Source: a virus
Taxonomy: Duplodnaviria > Caudoviricetes
Virus record (IMG/VR): IMGVR_UViG_3300029288_000057
Location: 128,001 to 192,000 of that record
DNA: 64,000 nucleotides
Strand: one strand, 5' to 3'
In this document: positions 25,842-64,000 of the stretch, piece by piece
Layout of the letters: each line of letters starts with the position of its first letter
Numbering within the stretch: position 1 is the stretch's first letter
Translations under genes and position numbers: made by a program
Notes under the pieces: model-generated
What the model saw: only the letters and a program-made list of their open reading frames with translations
Databases searched by the model: none
What the model was told of the DNA's origin: nothing

Positions 25842-27017
25842 TTAAATATCAATTTCCAAATTAAAAGTTATAAGTCCATCGTATGTTTTTTCTACTGGTC
25901 TGTCTAATTTTGCCACCGCAATTAATTGTGCGTGGACGTTGTATAAACCAACTTGTGTAACAAAAATTGAGTCAAAATTTGTTGTGTGATTGGTAATTTC
26001 AGCCAAGTTCCTTGACAATGGCCATGATGGATTCTTAGATATAAAGAATTGTCCTGGCATAGCAATACAAACAACAGAAGTTAAATATCTTATGCTAATA
26101 TCATCATAAGTTAAAGTTGATGCTGGTGTTGTGCCTGTAAACACAATTCTTGATGTTCCGCTTGTTGCTCCTGCGTTTGACCCGTTTATAATATTTTCTC
26201 CAGCATTCGTGGCCCCATAACCACCTTCATAGATTGTACTTCCAGAAACCCATGGGATACTGTTGACAATTGACGGATGTGTTAAAATGATAAATCCTTT
26301 ATCCAAGCAGACAAATCCAACTGGTATATCATAATTATATCCAAGTGACACATCTAGGCTGGTTGCCTTTGGATATGCCTGATTTACTGATACGGCTAGA
26401 TTTACCGTAGACCAAGGTCTAAGGTCTGTGTTATAATCTACGGTTTTTATTTCTGGATATGCAACCGCAGAAGGCCTATCTCTAAAATCAACAGTTGGTT
26501 CCCATGTTGTAATGCTACTACGGTTTACATGTGCATATTCTGTGGTTCCACTGTATGGTTTGTTTACATCGTCAGAAAACAAAAATGCCACATTGTTAGG
26601 ACCAAAATATTGGATGGGGGAGTCTGATATTTTCGAAGTTCTTAATCTATCAGAATAAAAACTAGAAACTATTGTTTTCCCGCTATTTCCCCATTGAGGA
26701 ACGACAATTTTAATTGACCTTCCATCGATATATTCACTATAATCATTTTCACTAATTGAAATCACCACGATTCTGTTAACGTTCAGTTGAAATAATTGTG
26801 GATTGGCTTTTGTAATAGTATCTCCACTATAAAAAACTGTGTTTGATGCCTTATGGGGCATGTTAAACGATGAAAAATAGTGCGCATATTTAGAATTGGT
26901 GTCCGTTCTATCTGCTAAAGTATATGCTATTTCTGACCCCGATAAGCTTTTCCTCGTCGTAACTTCTTTTCTTATAGCGGTTGATGAGTTTACTTGTACT
27001 TTGTTAATTTCTGCCAT
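25842..27017 (-). CDS. tail/baseplate structural protein (tail-collar-like C-terminal motif)
   Basis: C-terminal VTQVGLYNVHAQLIAVAKLDRPVEK. Confidence 0.65.
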   Translation of the reverse strand: MAEINKVQVNSSTAIRKEVTTRKSLSGSEIAYTLADRTDTNSKYAHYFSSFNMPHKASNTVFYSGDTITKANPQLFQLNVNRIVVISISENDYSEYIDGRSIKIVVPQWGNSGKTIVSSFYSDRLRTSKISDSPIQYFGPNNVAFLFSDDVNKPYSGTTEYAHVNRSSITTWEPTVDFRDRPSAVAYPEIKTVDYNTDLRPWSTVNLAVSVNQAYPKATSLDVSLGYNYDIPVGFVCLDKGFIILTHPSIVNSIPWVSGSTIYEGGYGATNAGENIINGSNAGATSGTSRIVFTGTTPASTLTYDDISIRYLTSVVCIAMPGQFFISKNPSWPLSRNLAEITNHTTNFDSIFVTQVGLYNVHAQLIAVAKLDRPVEKTYDGLITFNLEIDI

Positions 27018-27065
27018 TATATTATATTTTTATTTATTATAAAAGTTTTTTCTATGTAGCCTTTA

Positions 27066-27791
27066 TTACGTTGTCTTTCCACCAATACCAGTTGGGCTTT
27101 CTCTACTTAACGAAGGTTGCGAAGGTGCCTGGCCTGGATAAAAGTTAAAATTAAATGAAAAAGTAGATGCTTTACTTACAGTTCCACTTACACTTCCCCA
27201 ATAACTAAAAGTATAATCAACTTTTTGAATTGCTTCGGTAGATGAAAAGGTTTTTGTCATATTTGTATTTGGCACTGCACTGGGAACTTTAGGGGTGTTG
27301 TTGTTTGGTAGTGTACTTGCATATGAAACAAAAGCATCAATAAATTCCTGTGGAACACCAGTAAGATAATCTTTATATCCTGTAAAATAAGTAGCATCAG
27401 CTTTACATGGCACACAATATACCATGTTATAATATTGTGGGCTTCCATCGTCTGGCGCATAAAATTTAAGTGCATATACGCTATTGGGAATTGGAAGGTA
27501 ATAAATTCCAGATTGTGGACCATCACACTCCTGCAAGCCAACAAAATTTGGTTTTATATAATATTTTTCAACAATTATATTGTTGTTATTTATAACCCCA
27601 CCATAAGTTATAAGTTTTATTTTCCCAGCAATTGTTGACTTGCTTGGATGCTGGTTCTCTACTTTAGATGTAGACGTTCTGTTCCCACTATCTATTTGAA
27701 TTTTGTCCAAAGTAGTTCCAAGTGTTGATGCTATTTTTTCTGCATTTACCTTGCCAAGTGCGTCCGTTGTTATTTTGGTTGTTGCTGCCAT
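27066..27791 (-). CDS. putative virion protein
   Basis: T/S/G-rich, inside the tail operon. Confidence 0.5.
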   Translation of the reverse strand: MAATTKITTDALGKVNAEKIASTLGTTLDKIQIDSGNRTSTSKVENQHPSKSTIAGKIKLITYGGVINNNNIIVEKYYIKPNFVGLQECDGPQSGIYYLPIPNSVYALKFYAPDDGSPQYYNMVYCVPCKADATYFTGYKDYLTGVPQEFIDAFVSYASTLPNNNTPKVPSAVPNTNMTKTFSSTEAIQKVDYTFSYWGSVSGTVSKASTFSFNFNFYPGQAPSQPSLSRESPTGIGGKTT

Positions 27792-27815
27792 GTTTTTATT
27801 TAATTAAATTAAAGT

Positions 27816-28278: not shown

Positions 28279-30315
28279 TTAAAAATCTAACTCTAATTGA
28301 AATGCTAAATATCTTGATTCATTCTTTTTTATTGGGTATGCTGGTTTTGCAACTGCCACAAGTTCATTGTTTGAATTTAGCACACCTATTTCTGTGATAA
28401 AAGTACTGTCATCATACAACTCGTCAAAAGATTCATTGTTTGATGAGTTATATTCATCATTTCTTGCATATATTGTAATTATAGTTTTATACACACTTGC
28501 TTTTATCCCTGTCGTTAAATTCCCGTAGAAGAAAGATTCGTCTCCAAAAGTTAAACCACTAGAAAATAAAGAGTCTACATTAGATGTGAATGCTGAAAAC
28601 CTTCCGCTTAGTGCGTAAGTTGTTCCTGAATCATAATCTGCCTGTGTAATGCTGAAAACATGACTTTGTAAATCTGATGGACTTATTGTTCCCGTGCCAC
28701 CAGTATATATTCCATTTCCAACTCCATTAGAAATTAATTTCCAATTATATGTTGGCAAATCTCCAACCAAAGTGCTTGCGGATGTAACAATCTCTTGAAC
28801 AAGTATTTGTACTGAATTTGCGTTCCAACCAGTTCCTGTAAGCCCAGACAAGTTTGTATCGCTTCTTAAGTATGGGAAAGAAAGCGCTGGGAAACTAGCT
28901 CTTAAGATGGATGGCAATCCAGTAACAGAGTCTGTTTGTCCATCTATTCTCGTTACGTATCCACACGGAGAGCTTTGTGGATATCCATAACTAACCCCTT
29001 CTTGATATAGTGAACTAGAAGTTACATATGTTACATAATAAGAATAATCACTTTTACAAAGACCAGTTGAAGCGCCTATTGTTGATGGCATTAAATTAAG
29101 CGATAGTTCTGGTATTGTATAATTTCTATTAGATTTATATGTTAAAGCGGTTAATAATTCTTGGTCTGTTATAATAATTATTTTAAGTTTATGATAAACT
29201 CTTCCGACAATCAAAGATGTGCTTGAAATTCCGTCCCTTAAATCTCTGTAATAAGTTTCAGAAACAGTGTCAAAAGTATCATCTCCATATAAATCATATA
29301 GAGTAATTCCATAATTCATTTCTTCTCCCAATGTTGTTGTGAAATTTTTATGCCACATTATATTTGGAATCTCTAATTTAACCGTTCCAGGCACAAACTG
29401 CTCTGCATATGTATTTCCAGAATATTTATTAGTATAGTGAATTACTCCAAAAGTTTTTGTTTCGTTATAGAATCCCAAATATTGTTTGGTGCCATTAAAC
29501 TCAATAGAGCCATATGTTGTATAACCACTATCTGAAATTGCAGTCCCTTCTATCGAAGATGTTCTTATTATATTCATGTTCCAGACTCCACAATTGACCG
29601 TGGCCGCAGACCCGTAGTAAGTTTCTATTCCATTGTATGGGTAAAAATAAGCTTGGATTTTTTGTTGAGAGGCTGCTATAAAAGGATATCCAAAAAATGG
29701 AACACTTCTGTCTAAGTCCAAAGTAAAACCAGTTCTACCTTGTACTCTGTACCACAATGAAACATTTGGTCTTCCGCTGTATACAAACGCCGTACTATTT
29801 GTTATTGCACTATATTGTGGTGGTTCCCAAGGAATATACACCAAATCTCCTGTTTTCGCAGAGTAGCCTCCAGCTGAAAAAGTAATTTCCGTAGTTCCAA
29901 ATGGAGCTCTTTGTGAGTAATCTATTTGTGCGACCCCAATACATGGACCGTCACTGATAGTAGCTCCAGTTTTTATTGACCAATTGTTAGAACTTCCAGA
30001 AAAAAAGCCAGCCGAACTTGTCATTGCAGAAACAATCTGTCTTGCACTGGTTAAACTTTGTGTGCTTATTACAAGACCATCAGCACCATTAAAGCTTGTG
30101 TTGCCGCTATAGGGAAAAATTGGGTGGTCATCCTTTGGTGCTAGAATCCTATTTTGACAAATATCATAATAATTTCTAGCTATTCCATAATTAACTTCCC
30201 TATCAGAAAAAACTATTTTATTAAAAGTTAATGCTCCCAATGATAACAATCTTCTTCCTGTATCGGTAAGCTTAATGTTTATAAAATTTGAAGGTTCTTG
30301 AACTATATAACTCAT
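28279..30315 (-). CDS. tail/baseplate structural protein
   Basis: N-terminal IKLTDTGRRLL...FSDREVNY; C-terminal ITEIGVLNSNNELVAVAKPAYPIKK; start MSYIVQ placed from the promoter. Confidence 0.7.
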   Translation of the reverse strand: MSYIVQEPSNFINIKLTDTGRRLLSLGALTFNKIVFSDREVNYGIARNYYDICQNRILAPKDDHPIFPYSGNTSFNGADGLVISTQSLTSARQIVSAMTSSAGFFSGSSNNWSIKTGATISDGPCIGVAQIDYSQRAPFGTTEITFSAGGYSAKTGDLVYIPWEPPQYSAITNSTAFVYSGRPNVSLWYRVQGRTGFTLDLDRSVPFFGYPFIAASQQKIQAYFYPYNGIETYYGSAATVNCGVWNMNIIRTSSIEGTAISDSGYTTYGSIEFNGTKQYLGFYNETKTFGVIHYTNKYSGNTYAEQFVPGTVKLEIPNIMWHKNFTTTLGEEMNYGITLYDLYGDDTFDTVSETYYRDLRDGISSTSLIVGRVYHKLKIIIITDQELLTALTYKSNRNYTIPELSLNLMPSTIGASTGLCKSDYSYYVTYVTSSSLYQEGVSYGYPQSSPCGYVTRIDGQTDSVTGLPSILRASFPALSFPYLRSDTNLSGLTGTGWNANSVQILVQEIVTSASTLVGDLPTYNWKLISNGVGNGIYTGGTGTISPSDLQSHVFSITQADYDSGTTYALSGRFSAFTSNVDSLFSSGLTFGDESFFYGNLTTGIKASVYKTIITIYARNDEYNSSNNESFDELYDDSTFITEIGVLNSNNELVAVAKPAYPIKKNESRYLAFQLELDF

Positions 30316-30329
30316 TTTTCTTATTTTCC

Positions 30330-30337
30330 TATAAATA
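30330..30337 (-). promoter_or_regulatory. late promoter motif TATTTATA
   Basis: 14 nt upstream of the ATG at 30315; divergent with 30428. Confidence 0.65.
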
Positions 30338-30427
30338 ATCAATAAAAAAATATTTAAACTTTTTGAAAAAATAAATAGTTAACCATTAAAAACCTTTTTT
30401 GATTTGTTTTTAAATCTTTTTTGTTAA

Positions 30428-30450: not shown

Positions 30451-32961
30451 ATGCCTATTTTTGACACAATACCGAATTCTGCAACTACACTATCTGTAAA
30501 TTATAGACCAGGACAAAACAAAAGACTGTTTTCCTCAAAGTCTGAGGCCATATTTTCTTTTGGTGATTTTACAATAGAAAACAACTATACTTTAAATCAG
30601 TTAACGGGGTATACACGTAGTTCTCAGTTTGGTACTTTTGACAATTTACAAACCTTAAGTGCCGCAAATTTTTCTAATGACAGCTTTACGTTTTCCGTAC
30701 AACACAATGAATTAAACTTACCAAAAAGGAATCCAAAATCGCATGCTTATTTTTCTTCCTTTTATACAAATGTGGCAACATCAATCAATACTATAATAGA
30801 AAACTTCCCATATGCTATTTTATCACATAATGGTGGGAACACAAATATATTTGATTATACGGAATATTTTAATGGAATAACATTACAAAAAACTTCTTCT
30901 TTTAAAATACCAGTATCTGGATTAACGAACCAGGGAAATATTGCATTAGCTTCTGGGAACACAGAGGAAACATATAGTTTATCTTATGAATACGATGAGT
31001 TTTGTATACAATTAAGTGCAACAACAAGTGCAAAAACAGAGGTTTTTACAATAAAAGACTATTCGTTTTCTGGAACATATCTGTATTTTGAAGTTTATGG
31101 GTTTTTAATGAGTAGTGGTACTGCTACCTATGAAAACGCTCTCTATATAAGACCTACTAAAGAGAGAATGTTTAACTACAATGACTCTATAACTGCGCTA
31201 GAGACACAATTGTTAAATGAAGGAATATTTTTAATTCCAGCAATTGATACCACGGCAGACGACTCTTTTGAGAAAACATTTACATGGCCTAGAACCATAG
31301 ATGGGTTTTCTCCAGACTCATATGGAACTGATTTCGAGGATTATAAAGAAAATATATTGGCTGCAGCTGAAAAGGTTGACCAAGAAAAGACAGATATTTT
31401 TATAAAAACAGTAATTCCAGAAAATTATACGGAATTAGATTCTGATAATGAAATTTATAGAACTATAATACAAACATATGCTTATGAATTTGATAAGCTT
31501 AAGAATTATATAGATGCAATGGCGTATGCTCATAGCATTGAATATAATAATGAAGAAACAGTGCCAAAAAAATTCTTAACGAAATTAGGTTCTCTCTTGG
31601 GGTGGAAATTGTCGGAAGGATTCAGTGAACTAGACTTGTTTGATTATTTAACATCTGACTTAGACGAAAACTCTAATTCATTTTCCTATTTTAATCTTGA
31701 AATTTGGAGGAGAATTTTAATCAACCTCGTTTGGTTATATAAGAAAAAGGGAACAAGAGATGCTATAATGTTTATTTTTAGACTTATTGGAGCTCCAGAT
31801 TCTTTAATAAAGTTTGATGAGTTTGTATATGATATTGCTAAAACCACACCAATATTAACAGGGAAAGTAGACACTGATGGTTATATTAATTATGCGACCA
31901 GTGATTTTATATTTCAAGAGGGTGGAGATGGTAGAGGAAATGGGGATGCGTATATTAATCAGTGGAGACCAGAGTTTGACCCAGTTATGAGGGTTGATAA
32001 TAATAAAATACAAACTGGAGATACCACTGGTGGGACAAGAAGTATTGTAAACACAAAAGAAATAGACCTTGCCTTTTCTCCAGCACAAGCAATAGAAACA
32101 GATGTTTGGGAATTCTATCAACAAAGCGGTGCGTGTTGCCAAGGACAAGTTGGATGTACTCCAGCTCTTTCTTTAAGTTGTTTAACGGTGCCATCTGAAT
32201 ATCTTTCCTTTACTTGTGATGATGCATGCCCAGTAAACATAACTGCTATGACTTTAAATCAGTATATAGATTATGTTTATACTAATTCTATTGACCCAAC
32301 AAATAGGAAAACCAACGCACAATGTCATACAACATGGAGTTATCCAGAATTAAAAAATATATATTTAACCTATTATTATGCAACATGTCCTCCAGACAAT
32401 CACCATTTGACTATGTGCAGACTGGAGTCATATCTTCAATTGCTTGAAATGCAAATGGGAGATTATATATTACAATTAATACCTGCTACTACAATCTTTG
32501 ACGATTCCGTCGCTTCTCTATATAAGAATACAGTTTTTCACAGGCAAAGATTTGTTTATAAAGAAGGAGTCGATAAGGGGTCTATGTTTAGAAGAAATTT
32601 TCCTGATGAAATTCAACCAGGGGTTGGATATTCTTTTGTGAATACAGCTACAATATGTGTTTTTGCTGGGCACAGCAACCTGTCTAGCGGAGCTTTAGAT
32701 ATAACGGGCAATTCCTGGAGGGTCGAAAAGAATATTCCAGCGGGAAATATTTGTCCTTCTGCAAAAAACATTGCCAACAAAACTTCTGGTAGAAAAATTG
32801 ACACTATCACAACAAAGAGTGGTGCATTGAGCCCAATTAAAGTGACCTGCAGCATAAATAAAAACAAGTTATCGACAGGAATTGATGCTGTAAATATATC
32901 TAATGTTGAGGTAAACGAAATGTCGCAAAATTTAATAAGTGAAGAAATATTTGATTTTTAA
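30451..32961 (+). CDS. baseplate wedge protein (P2 gpI / T4 gp7-like core)
   Basis: VPKKFL..LG..LGW...IWRRILINLVWLYKKKGTRDAI.F..RLIG; QLIPATT. Confidence 0.7.
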   Translation: MPIFDTIPNSATTLSVNYRPGQNKRLFSSKSEAIFSFGDFTIENNYTLNQLTGYTRSSQFGTFDNLQTLSAANFSNDSFTFSVQHNELNLPKRNPKSHAYFSSFYTNVATSINTIIENFPYAILSHNGGNTNIFDYTEYFNGITLQKTSSFKIPVSGLTNQGNIALASGNTEETYSLSYEYDEFCIQLSATTSAKTEVFTIKDYSFSGTYLYFEVYGFLMSSGTATYENALYIRPTKERMFNYNDSITALETQLLNEGIFLIPAIDTTADDSFEKTFTWPRTIDGFSPDSYGTDFEDYKENILAAAEKVDQEKTDIFIKTVIPENYTELDSDNEIYRTIIQTYAYEFDKLKNYIDAMAYAHSIEYNNEETVPKKFLTKLGSLLGWKLSEGFSELDLFDYLTSDLDENSNSFSYFNLEIWRRILINLVWLYKKKGTRDAIMFIFRLIGAPDSLIKFDEFVYDIAKTTPILTGKVDTDGYINYATSDFIFQEGGDGRGNGDAYINQWRPEFDPVMRVDNNKIQTGDTTGGTRSIVNTKEIDLAFSPAQAIETDVWEFYQQSGACCQGQVGCTPALSLSCLTVPSEYLSFTCDDACPVNITAMTLNQYIDYVYTNSIDPTNRKTNAQCHTTWSYPELKNIYLTYYYATCPPDNHHLTMCRLESYLQLLEMQMGDYILQLIPATTIFDDSVASLYKNTVFHRQRFVYKEGVDKGSMFRRNFPDEIQPGVGYSFVNTATICVFAGHSNLSSGALDITGNSWRVEKNIPAGNICPSAKNIANKTSGRKIDTITTKSGALSPIKVTCSINKNKLSTGIDAVNISNVEVNEMSQNLISEEIFDF

Positions 32962-32971: not shown

Positions 32972-34672
32972 ATGCCATTAATATATGACTCAAATAGTAG
33001 AATTTTTATAAAACAGGACTATCAAAAGCATTCTGGGAAAGCATCATGTAGTTCGGAAAGTGCAGTAGAAGCATTTCACACAAATCATTTTGTTAGTGCT
33101 GAACAATTTAATGCAACGCTTTTTGCATTCGATACTCCTTCATACTATACAAAGGGAGGTACCTTAAATTATTATAGCCAAGATTATTGGTCTGTTTACA
33201 CAAACATATCTCGTCCATATATTAAATTTGTATTTACAGCCAATACAAAAAGTTTTGGAACTGGAACAACAATAAAGCATGATGTTTATAAAATCCCTTA
33301 TAAAGATTACAAAAAATATACAGATGAATTAAATAAAAAAGCTGAACAAAACAGTGAGGATTGTAAAATTCAATCTATTGAAGAGGCTAGTGTTGTCGGT
33401 GATGCTGCTACTGCAACTACAAAAAGGATAACATTAACCAGCAATAGAGATAGTGTGGCATCCAAAGTTTTTCCACAAACAGTTTCTTGCGCTGATTCAC
33501 AAGTTTCAAAACAATATAGTGGAATAGAAAGTTTATTAATCAATCCCATTTTAACAGTTACAGCAACTACTTCTGGAATTTCAACTAGTGTTTATGATTT
33601 GTTTTTAGAAGAATATCAAAAAAAGTTTGGAGGATACCAATATCAATTATTTGAGGATTATGCTCAATATTTTATAACAACACAGTTTGAATTTAGCAGA
33701 GAACAGGCGGTGGGATTAGATGAGTTTTATCAATTGGATGATGATAAAAATCTGGTTTCAATTGAATACCAACAATACTATGAGGAGATTACTCCAACCA
33801 ATAGTCACACAATAACTGGTGGAACATTTTCTGGTATCACTGTCCATGGAAATTTCTTTACATATTTTTTAATTCCAAACAAGCCAAAATGGGAAAGTCC
33901 ATATGTAACAGGTTCTCTTAATACTTTTGCCCCAACATTCTTTTGGTCTAACACTGATGATGGAGATAGTTATTTGCTTCAGGTTGTTTATGAATCTGGA
34001 GATTGCCAATCATTTAGTGGCACCGTATATTCTTATCCAATAGAAAAGGACAAAACGAATTTAAGCACTAATGAAATATTAAACTCACCTTCTGGGGATT
34101 GGTCAATAACACAAGAAACAACAGATGTGGTAAGACAATATTCTGTGCCCTTAAAAGTTGGTAAAGACTTTTGGTATAGAATTGCAAACGTTAAAGAATT
34201 GGTAAATATATTTGGTGTAAAACAAAAGGTATACACATTTTCAGATATAAGTGCTGCCACGATTACCTCAACTTCATATAGGTCTAAAGTTTATGTTCAA
34301 GCAGATAGCTCACACATGGAGGATATTTCGGAAATGATTTATCCAGAATACCTAGATGATATTGTTCAGAGTCAATACACTTTAAGTGGAAGTGTTTCTG
34401 GAAGTGTCGTAACAGGAGCTACAATGCAATTGGTTTATCCAAATGGAAATTACGAAACCAAACTGACAGATTCTGTGGGTAATTTCTACTATACAGAATT
34501 GGAAGGAGGGATACATACATTAAACACATTCTATAGGGGCTATTTGCAAGACACTAGAACTATAAATATAACTGCGAATACTGTATGTGATGTAATTTAT
34601 CTTAAATTAATTTGGGGAAATAGATGGGATACATGGGGAGCAATGGGAGATAAAGTTTTTGGTATAGATTAA
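32972..34672 (+). CDS. virion structural protein with FN3-like and carboxypeptidase-regulatory-like beta domains
   Basis: PTFFWS...SYLLQV...WYRI; C-terminal LSGSV...GATMQL...TDSVGNFYY..L..G. Confidence 0.55.
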   Translation: MPLIYDSNSRIFIKQDYQKHSGKASCSSESAVEAFHTNHFVSAEQFNATLFAFDTPSYYTKGGTLNYYSQDYWSVYTNISRPYIKFVFTANTKSFGTGTTIKHDVYKIPYKDYKKYTDELNKKAEQNSEDCKIQSIEEASVVGDAATATTKRITLTSNRDSVASKVFPQTVSCADSQVSKQYSGIESLLINPILTVTATTSGISTSVYDLFLEEYQKKFGGYQYQLFEDYAQYFITTQFEFSREQAVGLDEFYQLDDDKNLVSIEYQQYYEEITPTNSHTITGGTFSGITVHGNFFTYFLIPNKPKWESPYVTGSLNTFAPTFFWSNTDDGDSYLLQVVYESGDCQSFSGTVYSYPIEKDKTNLSTNEILNSPSGDWSITQETTDVVRQYSVPLKVGKDFWYRIANVKELVNIFGVKQKVYTFSDISAATITSTSYRSKVYVQADSSHMEDISEMIYPEYLDDIVQSQYTLSGSVSGSVVTGATMQLVYPNGNYETKLTDSVGNFYYTELEGGIHTLNTFYRGYLQDTRTINITANTVCDVIYLKLIWGNRWDTWGAMGDKVFGID

Positions 34673-34705: not shown

Positions 34706-35599
34706 ATGAATGGAGAATTAATATTAAGTGCAAGTTCCTTAAATGTGGGAAGGGCAGCCATAAATTATGCATTTAGTGGTGAAGCATCTTTTAATACATT
34801 AAGTGCGCAAACAATGGTGTCTGGTTCCACAAATCTATATGATATATTTGATGTAAAGGGTAGTGAAGATGTAACAAGAGTTCAACCAGGAACAAATATA
34901 TATACTGCGGGAACAGACAACAATCCATCTGTGAATATGTCTGCGGCCACATTGGATTCACTAACAGTAAGTGGAGCAACGTCACTTGGAACATTAAGCG
35001 CTACTACTACCATTTATTCTGCCAACACAGACCTATCTAGCATCTTTGTTGGAGGAAGTGGTACAACAGATTATGTTGCAATATGGAAAGATTCAAAAAA
35101 CTTAAAAGGAGCTTCTGGTTTTACCGCAACAGTTCTTTCTGTACCTCCAGCAATGGCTGGGAAGACACTAGTTTATATAAATGGAGAGATAAGCGCTGGA
35201 ACAATTTATTCTGCAACTACAAATTTGTATGACATATTTGAGCCCAAATCAACCACAGCTCCAGAAACATTTCAAACTCTTACAGACGCTGCAACTATTG
35301 TTTGGGGATATGATTTAGGGCGTAATGCAAAAGTTACACTTGGCGGAGATAGAGATTTAAAAATAACAGGACTTACGGACGGGGCTTGTGGAACACTAAT
35401 AGTAGTTCAAAGCGTTACTGGAAACAATAAATTATTTTTAACTGGGACAACAGGTGTTACAAATAAATTTATAAGTGGCGGAGGTGGAGTTGTTATTTTG
35501 ACTTCTACTGGTTCAGCGGAAGATATACTTTCCTTTGTTTATCACAATTCGACAAATATTTTATATTGGAATATTGGTTACAATTATACTGGACCATAA
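34706..35599 (+). CDS. short tail-fibre-like protein
   Basis: three SAxT(T)(M/I)(V/Y)S(G/A)xT(N/D)LxxIF repeats; C-terminal TLTDAATIVW...VTLGGDR...LIVVQ...DILSFVY fibre-tip-type domain. Confidence 0.65.
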   Translation: MNGELILSASSLNVGRAAINYAFSGEASFNTLSAQTMVSGSTNLYDIFDVKGSEDVTRVQPGTNIYTAGTDNNPSVNMSAATLDSLTVSGATSLGTLSATTTIYSANTDLSSIFVGGSGTTDYVAIWKDSKNLKGASGFTATVLSVPPAMAGKTLVYINGEISAGTIYSATTNLYDIFEPKSTTAPETFQTLTDAATIVWGYDLGRNAKVTLGGDRDLKITGLTDGACGTLIVVQSVTGNNKLFLTGTTGVTNKFISGGGGVVILTSTGSAEDILSFVYHNSTNILYWNIGYNYTGP

Positions 35600-36589: not shown

Positions 36590-37630
36590 TCACATTTCTC
36601 CTATTATTACATCAGGTAACGCCACATCAATTGTGTCTCCAGTTAATAAATGAGACACATTGAAGTTTATTGCTATAGCATTAAAATGAGTATCTGACCA
36701 ATATGTATTTTCATTTGTTACAAAATTGGGGTCAATAAAGCACTGAATTAATGAAGGTGTTGCTGCCGATAAAGTAGTTGACGTGGGGGTTGAAGGTGTT
36801 GTGTCGCTTCCTATAACTTTTACAAAAGAGCTGTCAACACTTTTTATATTTGTCTGAGTTGCCGTTTTCAAAAAGTCATAATTTGTTATTAAATCTGCTG
36901 GGTTTTGAGAAAATATTACCCCACTATTAATGGTTTTATAAATAACATTTTCACATGCGTCAAAAGCCATTCTGGCTGTTTGTGTAAATCTTTTCATCAA
37001 AAGAACGTTTATAAAATAATATTCACCTTTTGTTGGAACGTCTACATATCTTTCTTCTGTGTTGTTATTTCTTTCTCCTCTATATATATCTAAAGTTGCA
37101 GCAGTAAAGGGAGCTTTTGCTGGAGAATATGCTGCAATACTCGGAGTCATGCTTGACCAAAAGTAATAATTATGAAAAATGTTTTGTGTGATATATTCAT
37201 ACCCACTTCCATCCATTAATTGATTTCTAACAGCATTGTTAAAAACATCTGGGTTGACTGAATATTCAGAGTTAATTCCTCTTAAGATTGAGGTATTATA
37301 AAAATTATTAAAAGAGTCTGCTAGTTTTTCATCGTCATAATAAATCGCCTTAAATTGTGCTGTGGGAATAAAGTCGTTTGATAATGGGTTGAGCATTAAT
37401 GCATAATTCATTATTGAGGAAGATGATAAAAACGAATAATAAGCTTTGACAACCTTTTGGTTGTTTTCGTTTGAGAGGAAAGACCTTATATTCGAAAAAT
37501 CGACTATTTTATCCTGCTGGCCAGACTCATTTAAATAATAATTGTTCACATATTGCAAATCACTCTGAACTGAAGATGTTGTGCTTCCAGTAAAGAATCT
37601 GTTTTTTAATATGTCGTGAGTTTGTTCCAT
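36590..37630 (-). CDS. putative virion protein
   Basis: structural operon; shares a YxINVxLxKxx motif with the next gene. Confidence 0.5.
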   Translation of the reverse strand: MEQTHDILKNRFFTGSTTSSVQSDLQYVNNYYLNESGQQDKIVDFSNIRSFLSNENNQKVVKAYYSFLSSSSIMNYALMLNPLSNDFIPTAQFKAIYYDDEKLADSFNNFYNTSILRGINSEYSVNPDVFNNAVRNQLMDGSGYEYITQNIFHNYYFWSSMTPSIAAYSPAKAPFTAATLDIYRGERNNNTEERYVDVPTKGEYYFINVLLMKRFTQTARMAFDACENVIYKTINSGVIFSQNPADLITNYDFLKTATQTNIKSVDSSFVKVIGSDTTPSTPTSTTLSAATPSLIQCFIDPNFVTNENTYWSDTHFNAIAINFNVSHLLTGDTIDVALPDVIIGEM

Positions 37631-49228: not shown

Positions 49229-49229
49229 A

Positions 49230-51505: not shown

Positions 51506-51520
51506 AATTATTAATTTTAT

Positions 51521-51528: not shown

Positions 51529-51544
51529 TATGACTAAAAAAAAA

Positions 51545-52561: not shown

Positions 52562-53492
52562 AAACCTTATTTCTGTCAACATCAAAGAAATATTCTTTTT
52601 TGGCTAAATCCATCCAAAACTTACCTTCTTCTGGAATAACACCACCTTGTTCAACAGGAATTTGTGTAATATTCTGTGGAATTTTACAATATGTGTGTTT
52701 AAATGAACTATTGCTCTTTACCCTAAATTCATATCCTATTCTTGGAATGCACATCCCTTTCACATCATTATAAATCATTCTCATTAAAAATTCATAATAG
52801 TGACTTATTTTTATACTTTCTTTAAGTGGATAATATTTATCATCTTTTTGTTCACTGTATTCTTTGAGAGCATTTGTTCTAAACATGGCGCCTATTGGGA
52901 CGACACAATTAAATCTAGACAAAAGGTTTAAGTCTATTTTGCCAGCCTCTTCAGAAAGTCCTTCAGCCCATGGAGCTTCATTTACCAAACCGCTAAAAAC
53001 TCCATTTACTGTGTTTCTGACAATTGGGAAAAAGATTGAAATGTTTTCATTTTCAATTGCGTAAGAATTTGCACAATTATACCAGTTTAATCCAGCTACA
53101 TCATTTGGCTCTATTATTGAAATAAACTCATATTCATTTTTGAGTGCAATATTAAATGCCTCATTAAAGATTTTTGGGAAATTATCAATTGAACATGGTT
53201 TGATAAAATAATTGATTTTTTCCTCTGCTTTTATTTCTTCTTCTTCTAATATTCCCGTTTTATCATTTTTCTTTCTGATTGTTATTACGGGGCTCTTTAT
53301 TGCAGTCTCTAATAAGTGATAATTTTCGCTTGTTACGTCAGAAAAACTTTCTGGACATAACACCAATAAGTCCACTTTGTGTGATTGCTGAGCAACACTA
53401 TAAAACGTTTCGTTTAATGTCACCAAATTACTTAAATCGTCTACATATATAGCGACAAGTATATTACTGTTTTTTGAGTCCTTCAAGTTCAT
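52542..53492 (-). CDS. GT2-like glycosyltransferase (atypical DxD region)
   Basis: SVAQQS..VDLLV, FNEAF..A...EFISIIEPND, GAMFR, YEFLMR...IPRIGY. Confidence 0.6.
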   Translation of the reverse strand: MNLKDSKNSNILVAIYVDDLSNLVTLNETFYSVAQQSHKVDLLVLCPESFSDVTSENYHLLETAIKSPVITIRKKNDKTGILEEEEIKAEEKINYFIKPCSIDNFPKIFNEAFNIALKNEYEFISIIEPNDVAGLNWYNCANSYAIENENISIFFPIVRNTVNGVFSGLVNEAPWAEGLSEEAGKIDLNLLSRFNCVVPIGAMFRTNALKEYSEQKDDKYYPLKESIKISHYYEFLMRMIYNDVKGMCIPRIGYEFRVKSNSSFKHTYCKIPQNITQIPVEQGGVIPEEGKFWMDLAKKEYFFDVDRNKVYEKAKQ

Positions 53493-54717
53493 TGATTCTT
53501 TCTTGTTTATATTCGTTAATAATATTTAAAAAATTTTCCTTTTCTCCTTCTTCGGTGTATTTTTCAAGCACCTTTTCATAAGTTTGCTGAATTTCTGGCA
53601 CATCCATCTCTCCATTCAGCCACTTGTCAATAGCAACACCTAAAATTTCTGCTGTTTGGAAAATATCTCCATTAACAGTCCAAAATCCATTTTCTGCGGT
53701 TACATATTCTTTTCCTCCGTATGCATTCCAACCGACTACATGGGTGCCAGATGCCATAGCCTCAAGAGGCAATGTTCCAAATCCCGCAATGTCATCAGTA
53801 TATAAAACAAATGCACAACTTGACAGTCTTTCTGCAAATTCTTTTTTTGATAGTCCACCTAGTTGAATAAATCTTACCCATCTTAAATGCGGATAAAATG
53901 CTTGAAATGTTTTTATGATATTAAATGTTTTCATTTGGTTTTCTTGTCCCCTATTTCCCATAAAACCAACCATTGGATATTTGTTTGATTGTTTTCCAGG
54001 AACCTTAAATAAGTTTCGATTTATACCTTGTGAAAAGCTTTTTACATTTAAACCAGGCATAACAATGTTAAGATATTCAGTTATTGCATCTGAAACAGAA
54101 ATGACATCAGACACACCAAGCCCCTGCCACGTTTCTCCAGTGTTTAAAGAGTTGAGAATGTAAAACCAGCTTTGTGCCAAAATAATCTTTTTACAGGCCA
54201 CTTGCATGGTTTTTTTCATTACATTTGGAAATCCTTCTGGAATTATAAAAAAATCTTCTGGATTAACATTTAGCGCAGTACTATCTTGTTTAGTTCCATC
54301 ATTATAAAAAATAGTTTTCTTATCTGATAAAGGAAGAAATTCAATATCAGAAAAATCAAAATCTAACCACGTTGGATTAAATTTCTCAAAAATTACAGCC
54401 TCTTTCCCCTGCTTTCTTGATTCTTCATAAGACGCTCTCTGGTCTTGTCTTGGTTCAAAAACTATTTTGGACTTATATCCTGCATCTTTTAAAATCCTTG
54501 CAAGTTTGATTAAAACTCCAATTCCACCACTTGCACTATTTAGGGGAGGACAATAGAAATAATAGTTTGATTCGTTGTTTTTAACCTTTTCTTTTACCGA
54601 CTCAACCAGAGCGTTGTGGTCAACCTGTGCGGTATCTGGCATTTCGTTTTTTTCGACTACTGGCTCAACCACAACATTAGGATTGGCTTGTATATTATCA
54701 GTCATTTCTTTTTCCAT
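53464..54717 (-). CDS. GT4-family glycosyltransferase
   Basis: SGGIGVL; DDIAGFGTLPLEAMASGTHVVG. Confidence 0.8.
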   Translation of the reverse strand: MEKEMTDNIQANPNVVVEPVVEKNEMPDTAQVDHNALVESVKEKVKNNESNYYFYCPPLNSASGGIGVLIKLARILKDAGYKSKIVFEPRQDQRASYEESRKQGKEAVIFEKFNPTWLDFDFSDIEFLPLSDKKTIFYNDGTKQDSTALNVNPEDFFIIPEGFPNVMKKTMQVACKKIILAQSWFYILNSLNTGETWQGLGVSDVISVSDAITEYLNIVMPGLNVKSFSQGINRNLFKVPGKQSNKYPMVGFMGNRGQENQMKTFNIIKTFQAFYPHLRWVRFIQLGGLSKKEFAERLSSCAFVLYTDDIAGFGTLPLEAMASGTHVVGWNAYGGKEYVTAENGFWTVNGDIFQTAEILGVAIDKWLNGEMDVPEIQQTYEKVLEKYTEEGEKENFLNIINEYKQERINELEGLKKQ

Positions 54718-54780
54718 ATGAATTATTACATTTATTTAATTAAATTATACTTATTTATTAACGCAAAGTAAATAGTTGTT

Positions 54781-56584: not shown

Positions 56585-56585
56585 A

Positions 56586-58670: not shown

Positions 58671-59699
58671 TTATTCTATTTTTCCTGTTTTTTGATATTG
58701 GTCAATATCGCCCTTTAATATATCTATAACTAGTTCATTAAAGTTAATCTTTGGTTCCCAACCCAATTTTTCTTTTGCTTTTGTTGCATCTCCCAATAGG
58801 AAATCAACCTCTGTTGGTCTAAAATATTTTGGGTCAATCTCAATTAATAGCTGCCCAGTTTTTTTATCATACCCCTTTTCTTCAACACCAACTCCTTCCC
58901 ACCCAATCTCAAAACCAAGGTAATCAGCTGCAAATTCTACAAATTGTCTTACAGAATAGGCTTTGCCAGTGGCTAAAATAAAATCATCAGGCTCATCAGT
59001 TTGAAGCATTCTCCACATTCCCTCAACATATTCTTTTGCGTGACCCCAATCTCTTTTTGCGTCCATATTCCCCAGGCGAACTGTTTTGTTTTCTCCATAT
59101 TTTATTCTCACCAATTCAGATGTAATTTTTCTAGTTACGAAAGTTAGCCCCCTACGTGGAGATTCGTGGTTAAACAAAATTCCGTTACAGGCAAACAGGT
59201 TATATGCCTCTCTATAGTTTTTTACAATCCAGAATCCATATATTTTAGCCACTCCATATGGGCTTCTTGGGTAGAAAGGCGTTGTTTCTTTTTGTGGAAT
59301 CTCCTGAACTTTTCCAAAAAGCTCGGATGTTGACGCCTGGTAAAACTTTGCTTTGGGACAATGATTTTTTACTGCCTCTAATATATTTAATGTTCCTATG
59401 GCATCTACCTGTCCTGTATAATAAGGAATTTCGAAAGATACTTGAACGTGGCTTTGAGCGGCAAGGTTGTAAATTTCATCTGGTTGTATCTTAGAAACCA
59501 AGTTTGATATGGCTGAGGAGTCTGTTACATCTCCAAAGTGTAATTTTAACTTATCATAGATGTGGTCTATTTTTCCTGTATTAAAAGAGCTACTTCTTCT
59601 AATTGTTCCATGTACTTCATATCCCTTGTCAAGCAGTAGCTCAGCTAGGTAGCTCCCATCTTGTCCGTTTATCCCTGTGCAAAATGCGACTTTTTTCAT
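58671..59699 (-). CDS. gmd: GDP-mannose 4,6-dehydratase
   Basis: [56 protein letters not shown]. Confidence 0.96.
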
Positions 59700-60589
59700 A
59701 ACTCTATTTTATATTTTTTATTTTTATTTTGTTTATTATAATTTTCCAATTTATAAACATATTGTCTTGGCATTTTGTTTTGTTCTAGAATCCAAAGTAA
59801 AAACATGTGCGAACTTTTTTTATCAAAAAACAATCTGCCTCTAGAATTTATTTTTGCTTTAAACCCTTGTGTTTTTAATTTTTTGATAAGAATTTGTTTG
59901 TCTTCAAAAGAAAAGCACTCTGTGCATAATATAACATTTGCATAATTACAATATCCGTCTCCAATAAACCACCAAAAACAAGATGTGGGTGTTATTCGCA
60001 CGTCGTGTGGAATTATTTTCTTATTTTTATACCACCTCGCTCTTTGTTTTAATAAATCAAAGTAAGAATTTGACTTAAGGAAAAACCCAGTATATTGTTT
60101 TTTGGTTATTTTATGTGGCTTTGATGTATACTCAAAAACATTCCCAAATTTTATAGATTTAAAAGAAGCAACAACTTCTTCTAATGTTTCCTTAAATTTG
60201 CAGCCATATGTTATTCTAGATGATACTTTCGATTTTCCATCTAATGAGGCATCTGCTAACAAAATGCCGTCTAACACTTCAATTTCTAAATTTGAAATGT
60301 TGCATGTTTTTGCTCTTTTTAAGCTAATTTTATATCTAGAGTCAACCATTTTATCTATTGATTCTTTAGAGTGTGTTTTTGCAAAAAAAGAATTTCCAAC
60401 TCCCATAGAACGAATAGATTGCCTTTTCTTTTGTTCTTCCGTCATTTTTCTCCCAAGATTCAATTTACCATTAAAAGACCTTGCACAATTTATACAACAA
60501 AATCTCTTTTTTAATCCTTTTTTTGTAGAATTAGTTAAAAAAATATTATTGCACTTTTCACATTTTTTTTCTATAACTTCTTTTTTCAT
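59696..60589 (-). mobile_element. free-standing LAGLIDADG homing endonuclease with NUMOD3
   Basis: CEKC..FCC..C, GNSFFAKTHSKESIDKM, LDGILLADASL, WWFIGDG. Confidence 0.8.
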
Positions 60590-60654: not shown

Positions 60655-61818
60655 TCAAAATTCATTAACAATGGTTGCTATATAATTAATATCTCGCAAT
60701 GATAAATCCTGATGATTTGGCAAATAAAGACCAAACTCATCTATTTTATTTGCGTTTGGAAAATTCGTTTTGCCATATCTTTTTATCCAAAATGGTTTAT
60801 TCGCTATTGACCCTGCGATTAAAGGACGAACCTCTATGTTGTTCTTTCGAAGTGCTTCTGCTATTTCATTTCTTTTTTTGTGAACTATTGGATATCCAAG
60901 ATTGGAAATAAAAGATTCTTTCCTTTTTTCTATTTTTAATTCATTGTTTTTTATTAAAGATTCATAATAATAATAATTTTTATTACGAAGTGCACTGTAA
61001 TAATCAAGTTTTTCAATAGCTCTTAATCCAATAAACGCCTGAAAGTCGGTGGAACGAAGATTTAACCCTGGATAATAAAAGCAATATAGCTCATCGAAAT
61101 CCGAGGTGTTCCACTCTTTTTTTAACTTTTGCTTTGCCTCATCAGACAAATCTCTGTTCCAACCGTGACTTCTCATTGATAATAAAATGGTGTTTAACTC
61201 ATCATCACTAGTGCTTATAAAACCACCTTCTATTGTTGAAATATGGTGTCCAAAATACATGCTATATACAGATGCTAGCCCGAACGACCCAAGCATTTTA
61301 CCTTCATATCTGGAGCCCATACTCTCACAATTGTCTTCCAGCAGTTCCACATTATATTTCTTACACAACTTAAGAACTTCCTTCATTTTAGGAACTATTC
61401 CCAATGGTGAAACTGAAATAAACAACATGGGTTTTTCTTCTTGGTTGTCTTTAAATATTTGTTCCAAATTGTTTAAATCGCATGACAAATCTTCCATATT
61501 ACAGTCACACAATATCGGCTCAAATCCAAGAAGCATGGGAGAACTAACGTCGGTTATCCAACTAAGCGTGGGGCATACAATTTTATTGCTATACCTGCCT
61601 GTTGTTTTTAATGCTGCCAAAAGTAATAAAATAGCAGATGAGCCAGAATTAACGAACACTGAATGTTTGGTGCCAACTTTTTTTGCCCATCTTTCCTCCA
61701 ATAAAACAGTAAGGTCTCCTTTCGTAAGCCTTGGGATGGGGTCTTGTTGTAACCATTTTATAAGCGCATCAATATCATCTCTATTGATTGTGTCGCTTAC
61801 TAAAGAAATTTTGTCCAT
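60655..61818 (-). CDS. colD: ColD-like GDP-4-keto-6-deoxymannose 3-dehydratase (DegT/DnrJ PLP family)
   Basis: VNSGSSA, EDNCESMG, SMYFGHHISTIEGG (His at the PLP-Lys position), RSHGW; no E1-type Cys cluster. Confidence 0.75.
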   Translation of the reverse strand: MDKISLVSDTINRDDIDALIKWLQQDPIPRLTKGDLTVLLEERWAKKVGTKHSVFVNSGSSAILLLLAALKTTGRYSNKIVCPTLSWITDVSSPMLLGFEPILCDCNMEDLSCDLNNLEQIFKDNQEEKPMLFISVSPLGIVPKMKEVLKLCKKYNVELLEDNCESMGSRYEGKMLGSFGLASVYSMYFGHHISTIEGGFISTSDDELNTILLSMRSHGWNRDLSDEAKQKLKKEWNTSDFDELYCFYYPGLNLRSTDFQAFIGLRAIEKLDYYSALRNKNYYYYESLIKNNELKIEKRKESFISNLGYPIVHKKRNEIAEALRKNNIEVRPLIAGSIANKPFWIKRYGKTNFPNANKIDEFGLYLPNHQDLSLRDINYIATIVNEF

Positions 61819-61846: not shown

Positions 61847-62767
61847 TTATTTTCTAATAATATCTTTATTTTCTAAATACCAATCTATTGTCTTATTAAT
61901 ACCTTCTTCAAGTGTTGTAAATTGAAAATCTTTCGGCACATCAGATTTTGCTGGCTTTCTAAATTGTCCTTTTGGTTTTGTTATATCATATTTAATTCGT
62001 TCCTGGTTTATTTTAAAGCGATTTGCGATGATATCTACAACTTCTTTAATAGAATACTCAGTTTCATTGATTGTCATCATTGGAACGTCTGATTTCCAAT
62101 TGTCGATAGCCCATAGTATAATCTTGGCCAAGTCGTCAGCATAGATAAACTGTCTTAGTGAAGTTCCATCCCCCCATACAACAAAATCCTTTTCATACAC
62201 AGAGGCTTCGTATCCCTTCCTTATTAACGCTGGAACTAAGTGTCCATTTTCTAAATTAAAATTGTCATTTTCTCCATATACATTGTTTGGGATGATAGAA
62301 ATCCAATTGTTTCCAGTTACCTCCCTTGAATATTTCGTTGAGTAATACAAAAGTCTCTTTGCATAAGAATATCCATGATTCGATGGGTGGGGAGCTCCGT
62401 TGTCAATTTGGTCTGCGGTCAGTGGATAAATCGCTTTATCTGGGAAAACGCAGGTCGACAATATCGTTACAACATTTTTTAAATTGTGTATAATAGCACA
62501 TCTGGCTACGTTACTGTCCATTGTGATGTTCTTAAGAAAAAATCCGCTGTTATCATTCATATTGGCTTGGACTCCACCAACTTTGGCTGCACAATGTATA
62601 AGTGTATCTGGATTCCGAATTGCATTTAAAGATGAGAAATACCAATTTACCTCTTGTGTGTCTAATAAATCGCAATGGCTCCTTTGATGATATATGTGTC
62701 CTTTTCCAAGATTGTTTCTTAATGCTGACCCCAAAAGTCCATTCGAGCCTGTTATTAATGCTTTCAT
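61847..62767 (-). CDS. fcl: GDP-L-fucose synthase / ColC-like epimerase-reductase
   Basis: ITGSNGLLG, HCAAKVGG, LSTCVFP, YSYAKR, DNFNLENGH, VWGDG..LRQFIY. Confidence 0.88.
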   Translation of the reverse strand: MKALITGSNGLLGSALRNNLGKGHIYHQRSHCDLLDTQEVNWYFSSLNAIRNPDTLIHCAAKVGGVQANMNDNSGFFLKNITMDSNVARCAIIHNLKNVVTILSTCVFPDKAIYPLTADQIDNGAPHPSNHGYSYAKRLLYYSTKYSREVTGNNWISIIPNNVYGENDNFNLENGHLVPALIRKGYEASVYEKDFVVWGDGTSLRQFIYADDLAKIILWAIDNWKSDVPMMTINETEYSIKEVVDIIANRFKINQERIKYDITKPKGQFRKPAKSDVPKDFQFTTLEEGINKTIDWYLENKDIIRK

Positions 62768-62770
62768 ATT

Positions 62771-63562
62771 TTATATTTTTATCCAATTGTTACAATATAA
62801 ATCATTAGTGTTATAATTTGTATATTGAAAATTAAACCACTTTTTTGGTGCTACAACAATTTTGTTGTTGTTTTCATTTAACCAGGCACCCCACCAGGAA
62901 AAAGAAGAGTTTGCAATAATGTTGTTTTTACACAAAGACATAAGAAGTAGGTCCTCATAGTCTAGTTGTTTTTCAACAAAAATAAATTTTTCTGGCATAT
63001 CTGGAAAATTTTCTTTACACCACTGTATGTCATCTGAAAAAACAAGAAAAACACTATCTTCAGGCATTTGTTTTGATGCTTTTAAATAATAATCTATTCC
63101 TGGTATTATGTAAGCGTCTTGATATTTAAGATAATCACATCGTCTCACATGCATGGAGCAAGTTTCTTTATTAAGCAAATGTTTCCATTTTTCCACAATT
63201 TTATTTTTCACATCTTCTGGATATGAAAAAAGTTCTCTTATTTCTTTTTCGTGTTCGGAAAAGTGTTTTTCACTTTGAAAGTCTCCATCTAAATGAACAT
63301 CTGTGTCAATCGTTGGAATTTGACTAAAATGAAAATGTGGTTCATTGTATTTAAAGAAAGAGCTAAAATCATAGCTTTCTAAAAAAACCACCTTGTTAAA
63401 AACATTATCTTTATAATTGTCTACATGTCTATGTCTAACAACAGAATCTGTTGTTGTAAAAAAACATTCTTTATTGTTTTTTAGCGCATAAGAATATGCA
63501 CAGGCCACTTGAAACATGTAGTTGCACAATCCCCCTTTTAACTTTGCTGATACCTTGCTCAT
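62771..63562 (-). CDS. GT11 alpha-1,2-fucosyl/colitosyl-transferase
   Basis: GGLCNYMFQ, FQSEK.F, HVRRCDY, FSDDIQWC, IIANSSFSWWGAWL. Confidence 0.88.
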   Translation of the reverse strand: MSKVSAKLKGGLCNYMFQVACAYSYALKNNKECFFTTTDSVVRHRHVDNYKDNVFNKVVFLESYDFSSFFKYNEPHFHFSQIPTIDTDVHLDGDFQSEKHFSEHEKEIRELFSYPEDVKNKIVEKWKHLLNKETCSMHVRRCDYLKYQDAYIIPGIDYYLKASKQMPEDSVFLVFSDDIQWCKENFPDMPEKFIFVEKQLDYEDLLLMSLCKNNIIANSSFSWWGAWLNENNNKIVVAPKKWFNFQYTNYNTNDLYCNNWIKI

Positions 63563-64000
63563 ATTAAAACTTCTTCTAAAAGTATTTTCCTAACGTTTTC
63601 AACAGAATCTACATAATTTTTTGATAAAAGTAAATTGTTTTCTATTCCTGGGAGTAATTTTTCATAACTTTCTGGGGTTAAGCTGTTACAAACACCTAAA
63701 ATTTCCTTTAAATCATTGACAACAATGATTGAACTAATGTCAAAAAAATCCTCAATGTTTGGGCATCCCCAATAAATAGGAACCGTTTTAGTGACAAAGC
63801 AATCCATTATTTTTTCTGTAAAGCAATTCTTCTGTCTTGAGTTTTCAATGCAAATATGAAATTGTGAATCAAAAACTGGGTCTTTTTTTTCACCAAGTAT
63901 TTTGTTGTTGTTAAAATTTTCCACCCCAAGAAACTTGCTAATATAAAAGTCTATTGGATTGTTTATTTTTTCTTGTTTGTAATGTACCTTCTTTCTTAAC
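63559..64000 (-). CDS. GT10 fucosyltransferase-like (5' end beyond the window)
   Basis: FHICIENS...FTEKIMDCF...TVPIYWG; the frame stays open to the window edge. Confidence 0.75.
   Translation of the reverse strand, partial: LRKKVHYKQEKINNPIDFYISKFLGVENFNNNKILGEKKDPVFDSQFHICIENSRQKNCFTEKIMDCFVTKTVPIYWGCPNIEDFFDISSIIVVNDLKEILGVCNSLTPESYEKLLPGIENNLLLSKNYVDSVENVRKILLEEVLI

Follow-up and report, generated by a model that had tools for sequence, protein, structure and literature searches.

The stretch of DNA analyzed here, referred to below as the window, comprises 64,000 nucleotides (bases 128001-192000) of a single 290,886-bp contig with 33% G+C, IMG/VR record IMGVR_UViG_3300029288_000057. The contig belongs to an uncultured phage, G000, which has a contractile sheath and whose major capsid protein is of the T4 type. 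Between 25842 and 47757 the window consists of large late genes nearly without Pfam or PHROG matches, and at 53464 an island of sugar genes begins (Table 1). The subject of this work is a short amino acid tag, hydrophobic-[S/T]-[G/A]-x-T, which recurs in the tail proteins of the first region, together with the glycosyltransferases (GTs) of the phage that might read it. The original prediction held that the motif is a sequon of the phage's own and that the GTs nearby install a fucose- or colitose-containing O-glycan on it. For the tail proteins and for the genes from the baseplate to the GDP-mannose 4,6-dehydratase gene (Gmd), searches of Pfam and PHROGs gave almost nothing and NCBIfam added nothing. 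The DNA of the tail region had no match among GenBank phages, and no description of the tag was found in the literature.

The core of the tag, [ST][GA]xT, was counted in the 398 open reading frames (ORFs) that a simple greedy caller yields for the whole genome; these ORF calls are crude. Genome-wide, 226 occurrences were observed against 78-80 expected. Of these, 180 fall in nineteen proteins of the tail, sheath, fibres and baseplate periphery, where 32 are expected (about five-fold, z of about 25), and the remaining 379 proteins are at chance (46 against 47). For the proteins of the window the null was built from 1000 composition-preserving shuffles per protein, and the four richest reach z scores of 10.6, 9.2, 7.3 and 5.8. 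The enrichment over shuffled sequences that had been anticipated is thereby confirmed, and the earlier hand counts of the looser pattern [ST][GA]x[ST] proved exact when recounted by computation. A simple possibility is that the tag is a compositional or chance artefact of proteins rich in S, T, G and A, and the carriers are indeed rich in S, T and G. However, shuffling confined to 8-residue windows reaches 41 tags against the 180 observed in the 19 proteins, whole-protein shuffles leave the z of about 25 just given, and sister-clade homologues that are equally rich in S and T are at chance. In addition, the same residue classes in other orders give z of at most 5.8 in 10 of 11 cases; the eleventh order, T[GA]x[ST], overlaps the motif and gives 9.2 against 24.8 for the motif itself. 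The artefact can therefore be regarded as refuted.

When all 8000 patterns of the form abxc were scanned, the first four ranks were taken by SAxT, TGxT, SGxT and TAxT. Ser at position 4 was not enriched in this pattern (34 against 28.8 expected), and Thr is strictly required there. With the hydrophobic residue in front, the full tag was found 123 times against 10.6 expected, an 11.6-fold excess. As had been claimed, the motif is not a DNA repeat, because codons at the motif positions are used as in the background, Ser being encoded by both of its codon families, and 129 of 178 tag sites have no similar flank elsewhere (32 expected). The other 49 of the 178 sit in periodic fibre modules, of which L-SATT-L-SANT-II-SAGT, present as five repeats in a 933-aa protein, is an example. 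The motif is also distinct, as proposed, from the host Bacteroidota sequon D-[ST]-[AILVMT], which is not enriched in the 19 carriers (49 against 44.8 expected). Neither is N-x-S/T (131 against 141.6 expected in the carriers), and the DGY tag was not enriched in any genome examined.

Table 1. Features of the window, of the rest of the G000 genome and of other phages. Positions are those of the window unless another source is named; expected tag numbers are in brackets.
Feature	Position	Strand	[ST][GA]xT (expected)	[ST][GA]x[ST]	Remarks
391-aa tail-module protein	25842..27017	-	5 (0.9)	6	
687-aa tail protein	28279..30342	-	16 (2.0)	18	678 aa if started at ATG 30315
836-aa tail protein	30451..32961	+	9 (1.6)	10	TATTTAT upstream
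566-aa tail protein	32972..34672	+	9 (1.3)	10	weak CarboxypepD_reg-like domain
297-aa fibre	34706..35599	+	14 (2.0)	15	
346-aa tail/baseplate-periphery protein	36590..37630	-	4 (0.6)	4	
495-aa protein	38144..39631	-	2	4	InlB-B-repeat-like domain
1121-aa baseplate/tail protein	39644..43009	-	6 (1.7)	7	
635-aa conserved baseplate-module protein	43933..45840	-	0	0	internal negative control
471-aa core late protein	46342..47757	+	4 (0.6)	6	TATTTAT upstream
GT4-family glycosyltransferase	53464..54717	-			Pfam PF00534, 32.5 bits
GDP-mannose 4,6-dehydratase (Gmd)	58671..59699	-			Pfam PF16363, E 4e-145
LAGLIDADG/NUMOD3 homing endonuclease	59696-60589	-			between Gmd and the DegT-type gene
DegT/PseC/ColD-type pyridoxal phosphate (PLP) sugar aminotransferase or dehydratase	60655..61818	-			Pfam PF01041, E 2e-55
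NAD-dependent sugar epimerase/reductase (Fcl-like)	61847..62767	-			Pfam PF01370, E 2e-38
GT11 (alpha-1,2-fucosyltransferase family)	62771..63562	-			Pfam PF01531, E 4e-26
Thymidylate synthase (ThyA), 439 aa	genome 121731-123050 (L286:1731-3050)	-			
457-aa GT4-fold enzyme	genome 214059-215432				about 22 kb past window end; co-varies with the tag
ADP-ribosylglycohydrolase	genome 215475-216254 (L285:3475-4254)	+			
933-aa repeat protein	genome 225397-228198 (L001:1397-4198)	+	30		directly after capsid gene
Fibre of relative G004, 806 aa	G004:52423-54843 (L116:12423-14843)	-			
Collagen-like proteins of relative G008, about 1000 aa	L194:1080-4103; L210:9122-12193				G-P-T / G-E-T repeats
Fibres of relative G005	about 61-83 kb (L249-L268)				
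Coliphage phi92 gp163-166	FR775895.2 102200-105376 (L346:2200-5376)				

The richest non-repeat carrier is the 687-aa protein, which has more than 400 database homologues. The 391-aa protein belongs to no Pfam or PHROG family and has a 72% identical homologue in relative G001; the 836-aa protein is a core gene with weak homologues in all relatives. In the 297-aa fibre, 9 of the 14 tags lie in a module common to three other fibre proteins of the genome. A second tag-rich cluster is found beyond the window, at genome 225-243 kb, where the sheath carries 11 tags and fibre-like proteins of 166, 881, 569 and 235 aa carry 10, 20, 10 and 13, respectively. The 166-aa protein is encoded at genome 235317-235817. 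The 933-aa protein consists of five repeats of about 77 aa with three or four tags each, gives a weak 'phage tail repeat like' match and could be a head or neck fibre. A 162-aa tube-like protein contains no tag. The proteins named earlier as low-count controls behave as such, with two [ST][GA]x[ST] motifs in a 1250-aa protein, two in a 647-aa protein and none in the 635-aa protein; the latter had been called the inner wedge protein gp6, a name for which neither Pfam nor PHROGs gave a match.

The tag was then followed through the relatives of the phage (G001-G014), among which G010 and G014 are complete with terminal repeats, the contigs of G002 and G006 are 87% and 57% complete, and G004 is a fragment. 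Of 79 loci around sheath homologues, all those whose sheath is 50% or more identical show a 3-5-fold enrichment, which extends to the sheath itself, and loci with sheaths of 30-47% identity have the tag at chance. Genome-wide ratios of observed to expected tags are 2.8 in G000, 2.4 in G001, 2.9 in G005, 2.0 in G002, 1.85 in G008, 1.86 in G007, 1.8 in G009, 1.5 in G013, 1.24 in the G004 fragment, 1.17 in G010 and 1.12 in G014. The analytic expectation is about 10-20% low, so tag-free genomes score 1.1-1.2. The values of G008 and G007 were obtained after masking the residues of G-x-y repeats (about 900 in G008 and 1560 in G007). G008 is not strongly tag-rich as it first appeared, because collagen-like (GPT)n runs in two of its proteins match TGPT, and masking lowers its ratio from 2.68. 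The 20-kb flanks of the baseplate gene, used as a locus classifier, misjudged G013. The tail proteins of Microcystis phage Mel-JY01 have the tag at chance. On the sheath tree, G008 and G007 pair with G010 and G014, and the clade of G000 pairs with a clade of G004, Mel-JY01 and LR756508.1. Tag-bearing and tag-free sister clades thus interleave, from which it follows that the tag state has changed at least two or three times. The fibres of G005 contain, besides the tag, a repeated S-H-A-E-G (HxEG, 31 against 0.7 expected).

Conservation was examined in an alignment of 118 full-length sequences, all at least 50% identical, from among the best 120 homologues of the 687-aa protein. These carry 10-17 tags each, with a mean of 13.4 against 2.2 expected. 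At one conserved site the first position is Thr in 78 members and Ser in 40, the second Ala in 113 and Gly in 5, the third free (S, M, A or Q) and the fourth Thr in 117 and Ser in 1. At the same time the sites turn over, since 41 of the 66 tag-bearing alignment columns are tagged in less than 10% of the members. Among 37 sheaths of the same clade the pattern is likewise kept while the residues swap (a single site reads LSGTT, ISAST, ISAAT or LSATT), and 19 of 62 tag columns are singletons. Within these sheaths, 336 of 348 tags fall in residues 1-500, which form the variable outer domains, and 12 in the conserved C-terminal core, the part that matches the sheath Pfam families. Both data sets, as judged from the alignments, indicate purifying selection at the level of the pattern. 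What is selected is the pattern, and this selection is confined to certain lineages and, within the virion, to those proteins of the tail, sheath, fibres and baseplate periphery that face outward.

Such a pattern might also be explained by structure. The tag could be a strand-exit or turn element of beta-rich tail folds, a buried hydrophobic residue followed by S/T-G/A-x-T, that no enzyme reads. In the predicted model of the 687-aa protein (predicted local distance difference test, pLDDT, 70), about 12 of the 16 tags lie in loops at strand ends, several of them in low-confidence flexible segments. The expectation that tags occupy exposed loops is thus borne out as to the loops, which directly adjoin beta-strands as a structural element would. 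The 49 sites in periodic fibre repeats point the same way, as do the collagen-like runs behind the two largest G008 counts. So does the 806-aa fibre of tag-free G004, in which T-[GA]-S occurs 36 times against 2.6 expected as a periodic F-T-[GA]-S-[FYL] (F-T-G-S-[FYL] / T-A-S-Y) repeat, which represents either another tag or another structural repeat of fibres. Fibres can thus carry S/T-G/A repeats of a structural kind, and the tag signal of the fibres may in part be of that kind. However, the sister clades G010/G014 and G004/Mel-JY01 have homologous sheaths and tail proteins that fold in the absence of the tag. The tag stands in unrelated sequence contexts, yet only on outer proteins and outer domains, and its number is held at 10-17 per protein while the sites turn over rapidly. 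In addition, position 4 rejects Ser while S and T swap freely at position 1, which is odd for a turn motif. We therefore consider a purely structural role unlikely, though it deserves serious weight.

If an enzyme reads the tag, the sugar island is one place to look for it. Inside the window the island holds the GT4, Gmd, a LAGLIDADG homing endonuclease, the DegT-type enzyme, the Fcl-like epimerase/reductase and GT11. It extends about 20 kb past the window end, where two B12-radical-SAM proteins, a SPASM radical-SAM protein, a methyltransferase-like protein, several GT2s, a GT10-like protein, NeuB, a class-IV aminotransferase and a Maf/MptE-like protein are encoded. The sugar-gene set described before thus stands for GT4, GT11, Gmd and the DegT/ColD-like and Fcl-like enzymes; the GT2 and GT10 enzymes were not detected inside the window and lie beyond it. 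The only relative of the homing endonuclease in G001 (32% identity over 152 aa) sits elsewhere in that genome.

The window GT4 had been offered as the enzyme behind the motif. It has homologues in G010, G014, G011 and G013, and the genes around it (46342-56614) are core genes with homologues in the complete genomes G010 and G014. Since both of these are tag-free, the window GT4 and its neighbours cannot explain the tag, and this candidate is ruled out. The proposed glycan fared no better. Among the relatives Gmd occurs only in G001 and G005; tag-bearing G008 and G007 have no homologue of Gmd or of the DegT-type gene (whose NCBIfam PseC- and RfbH-like matches are below cut-off), and give weak or partial matches to the Fcl-like gene. 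It follows that the system does not include a fucose or colitose glycan as a conserved component. GT11 has homologues in G001, G005 and G008 and none in G010 or G014. NeuB and the Maf-like gene (PF01973, 47 bits) are unique to G000 and missing even in its close relative G001; Maf, absent from tag-bearing G001, G002 and G003, is ruled out as the tag determinant. The observation of the tag itself is real and very strong, but the enzyme and the glycan proposed earlier are not conserved parts of it, the fucose/colitose genes being accessories that vary between phages. A search of the genome in six frames found no initiating phosphoglycosyl transferase (PF02397 or PF00953), so direct cytoplasmic transfer to protein fits better than synthesis of a cell-surface polymer.

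A better candidate lies outside the window. By phylogenetic profile, genes were sought that are present in G001, G005 and either G008 or G007, and missing from G010 and G014. Nine of the 398 genes fit, and near-full-length matches in all four tag-bearing genomes (79, 57, 37 and 36% identity) were obtained only for the 457-aa GT. The other genes with this profile encode an ordinary thymidylate synthase, PhoH, a PolA-like protein, a small P-loop kinase-like protein (AAA_33), GT11 and two epimerases. No homologue of the 457-aa GT was detected by six-frame search, even at E 0.1, in G010, G014, LR756508.1 or Mel-JY01. At the sequence level its family match is weak (PF00534 at 23.0 bits against a cut-off of 26.4, over the C-terminal 60 residues only), and it matches PDB entry 5i45 at E 0.0014. 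The predicted model (pLDDT 88) is a two-Rossmann GT-B fold closest to GT4 structures, with GlgM, HepE, BshA, PglA, MshA and PimA as top Foldseek hits (E 2e-14 to 1e-10, template modelling scores 0.5-0.68). Among GenBank phage genomes the only close homologue (33-36% identity) belongs to a 735-kb uncultured phage deposited as LR756501.1 and LR756503.1. The tag was predicted in LR756501.1 from this homologue before inspection, and the prediction held: the sheath region is tag-rich (66 against 27.5 overall); the sheath itself carries 10 tags (2.2 expected), and three other large proteins carry 16, 10 and 8. G009 likewise has both the 457-aa GT and the tag. The flanks of the GT in 31 contigs are mostly non-structural genes and uninformative, except in L306 and L307. 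A GT variant of 27-29% identity occurs on short contigs; the four samples they come from are also the source of the G002-type sheath contigs, which is suggestive only. In the cultured coliphage phi92, gp164 is 25% identical to the 457-aa GT, and gp163-166 are annotated with trehalose-synthase-like, GT-B, ppGalNAc-transferase-like and GT folds. The part of the phi92 genome that was covered contains this cluster and no structural genes.

The timing of its expression is suggested by a heptamer, TATTTAT. This often occurs as TATTTATA, which is the T4 late promoter TATAAATA in reverse complement, and is located some 20-35 nt ahead of the start codons of structural genes, among them those of the sheath, the capsid, the 297-aa fibre and the 687-, 836- and 471-aa proteins. 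It occurs within 60 nt upstream of 73 of the 398 genes against about 10 expected by our own base-composition estimate, and is likely to be a late promoter. The gene ahead of the 457-aa GT codes for 257 aa and has TATTTAT 25 nt upstream; one base past its stop, the GT gene begins. Because the gene directly ahead carries the heptamer of the structural genes, the GT is probably made late, together with its proposed substrates.

It may be argued that the tag is read by something other than a GT, such as a kinase, an acyl- or ADP-ribosyl-transferase, an assembly chaperone or a host factor, and that the 457-aa GT, whose acceptor may be DNA or something else, co-varies with it only through shared ancestry. 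The association of GT and tag has no more than two or three independent contrasts behind it, the AAA_33 kinase-like, ThyA, PhoH and PolA-like genes share the profile, and an ADP-ribosylglycohydrolase gene directly follows the GT. Phage GT-B enzymes are known DNA glucosyltransferases. Both DNA-glucosylating and protein-glycosylating roles of phage GTs are cited in a review (PMC12619734). Nevertheless, ThyA is a true thymidylate synthase, not a hydroxymethylase, and the neighbourhood of the GT shows no base pathway for DNA hypermodification. G007 lacks the kinase-like gene, which has only weak matches elsewhere. Moreover, the transcription unit of the GT is of the late type and also contains head and tail genes, and the GT alone predicted the tag in LR756501.1. 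We judge a reader of another kind to be improbable. A DNA-hypermodification module of ThyA and the GT was ruled out, ThyA being an ordinary thymidylate synthase (TIGR03284, 298 bits); its gene product has a split family match with insertions of about 100 or more residues. The ADP-ribosylglycohydrolase gene starts 42 bases after the GT gene; G001 retains it at 80%, and tag-free G010 encodes a homologue at 45%.

Taken together, the best explanation, although a candidate only, is that hydrophobic-[S/T]-[G/A]-x-T is a sequon for a phage-encoded modification of exposed tail proteins, most likely O-glycosylation (probability about 0.55). The motif does behave like the phage's own sequon, as originally claimed, in that it marks exposed virion proteins, is conserved as a pattern while its sites turn over, and is lineage-specific; the glycan and the GT of that claim found no support. 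The modification would take place in the host cytoplasm late in infection. The soluble 457-aa GT4-fold enzyme may add the first sugar to a Ser/Thr of the tag, and the likeliest acceptor is the Thr of position 4, given that Ser never takes its place. The island's variable genes for GTs and sugar nucleotides, among them Gmd, DegT, Fcl-like and GT11 inside the window and the GT2s, GT10-like, NeuB and Maf-like genes beyond it, would then extend the glycan differently in each phage. Speculatively, the resulting coat might shield or stabilise the tail or mediate adhesion.

Several findings weigh against the sequon, besides the G004 fibre repeat and the possible structural share of the fibre signal. 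The capsid protein is not enriched (2 tags against 1.0 expected), and non-virion proteins show no avoidance of the tag. G013 has the 457-aa GT and a weak tag excess (67 against 44) with no single significant protein. The incomplete contigs of tag-bearing G002 and G006 (the latter tag-rich at locus L121) show no GT, and LR756508.1, which also lacks it, has 5 tags against 1.1 expected in its sheath. The association of GT and tag consists of two sister-clade contrasts and one distant genome; it is not significant alone and could have arisen through shared history. Furthermore, a GT4 fold does not reveal the acceptor, and DNA or a small molecule is possible.

A more specific proposal, which we put forward tentatively at slightly less than an even chance, is that in a large clade of uncultured jumbo phages a Thr-specific cytoplasmic GT4-type O-glycosyltransferase reads the tag and coats the exposed tail only, namely the outer domains of the sheath, the baseplate periphery and the fibres, the outer sugars being swapped freely between phages through a variable island of 28-40 kb. 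This would amount to a programmable glycocalyx with a sequon distinct from every described bacterial one. To our knowledge, proteins of phage particles are known to be glycosylated in only a few mycobacteriophages, and a short sequon has not been defined for any phage. If the tag is such a sequon, it would give a simple sequence rule for spotting glycosylated virion proteins in metagenomes, and in a very widespread group the sheaths and fibres, which come into contact with the surface of the host, would be sugar-coated. It would also imply a specific soluble enzyme with a four-residue acceptor tag, usable for glyco-engineering, and would explain the tens of kilobases of sugar genes without export machinery in these phages.

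Among known systems, the general O-glycosylation of Bacteroidota resembles the one proposed here in using a short Ser/Thr sequon on many unrelated proteins. However, it reads D-[S/T]-[A/I/L/V/M/T] in the periplasm from a lipid-linked glycan, and G000 has neither an enrichment of that sequon nor an initiating phosphoglycosyl transferase; tails of tailed phages assemble in the cytoplasm. The cytoplasmic N-glycosylation by HMW1C/NGT uses N-x-S/T, which is at chance in the carriers. A further parallel is the Maf-dependent glycosylation of flagellin with nonulosonic acids in Campylobacter, Helicobacter and Aeromonas, a direct cytoplasmic transfer to many Ser/Thr in the exposed domains of a polymerising protein, and G000 does encode NeuB and a Maf/MptE-like protein. 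Maf systems are not known to have a strict sequon, and these two genes cannot define the tag because they are absent from tag-bearing relatives. The GT4 enzymes of Gram-positive adhesins (GtfA/GtfB and SdgA/SdgB) are, like the 457-aa candidate, soluble GT-B/GT4-fold proteins; in the cytoplasm they glycosylate Ser/Thr of a structural surface protein, as is proposed for the candidate, but they act on long Ser-rich or Ser-Asp repeats, whereas the tag of G000 is dispersed and four residues long. Sequence similarity is negligible (SdgA matches the window GT4 at E 1e-4 and gives no match to the 457-aa GT). Another parallel is the virion O-glycosylation of mycobacteriophages by phage GTs (Freeman et al. 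2023, as described in PMC12619734). According to that description, phage GTs are proposed to decorate the phage's own structural proteins in the cytoplasm with a glycan coat, as is suggested for G000, which encodes a GT4, a GT11, several GT2s, a GT10-like protein and the 457-aa GT-B. The mycobacteriophage glycans described there sit on C-terminal extensions of capsid and tail-tube subunits, which in G000 are not enriched; G000 differs in that its putative sites are a defined four-residue tag scattered over the outer domains of the sheath, the baseplate periphery and the fibres.

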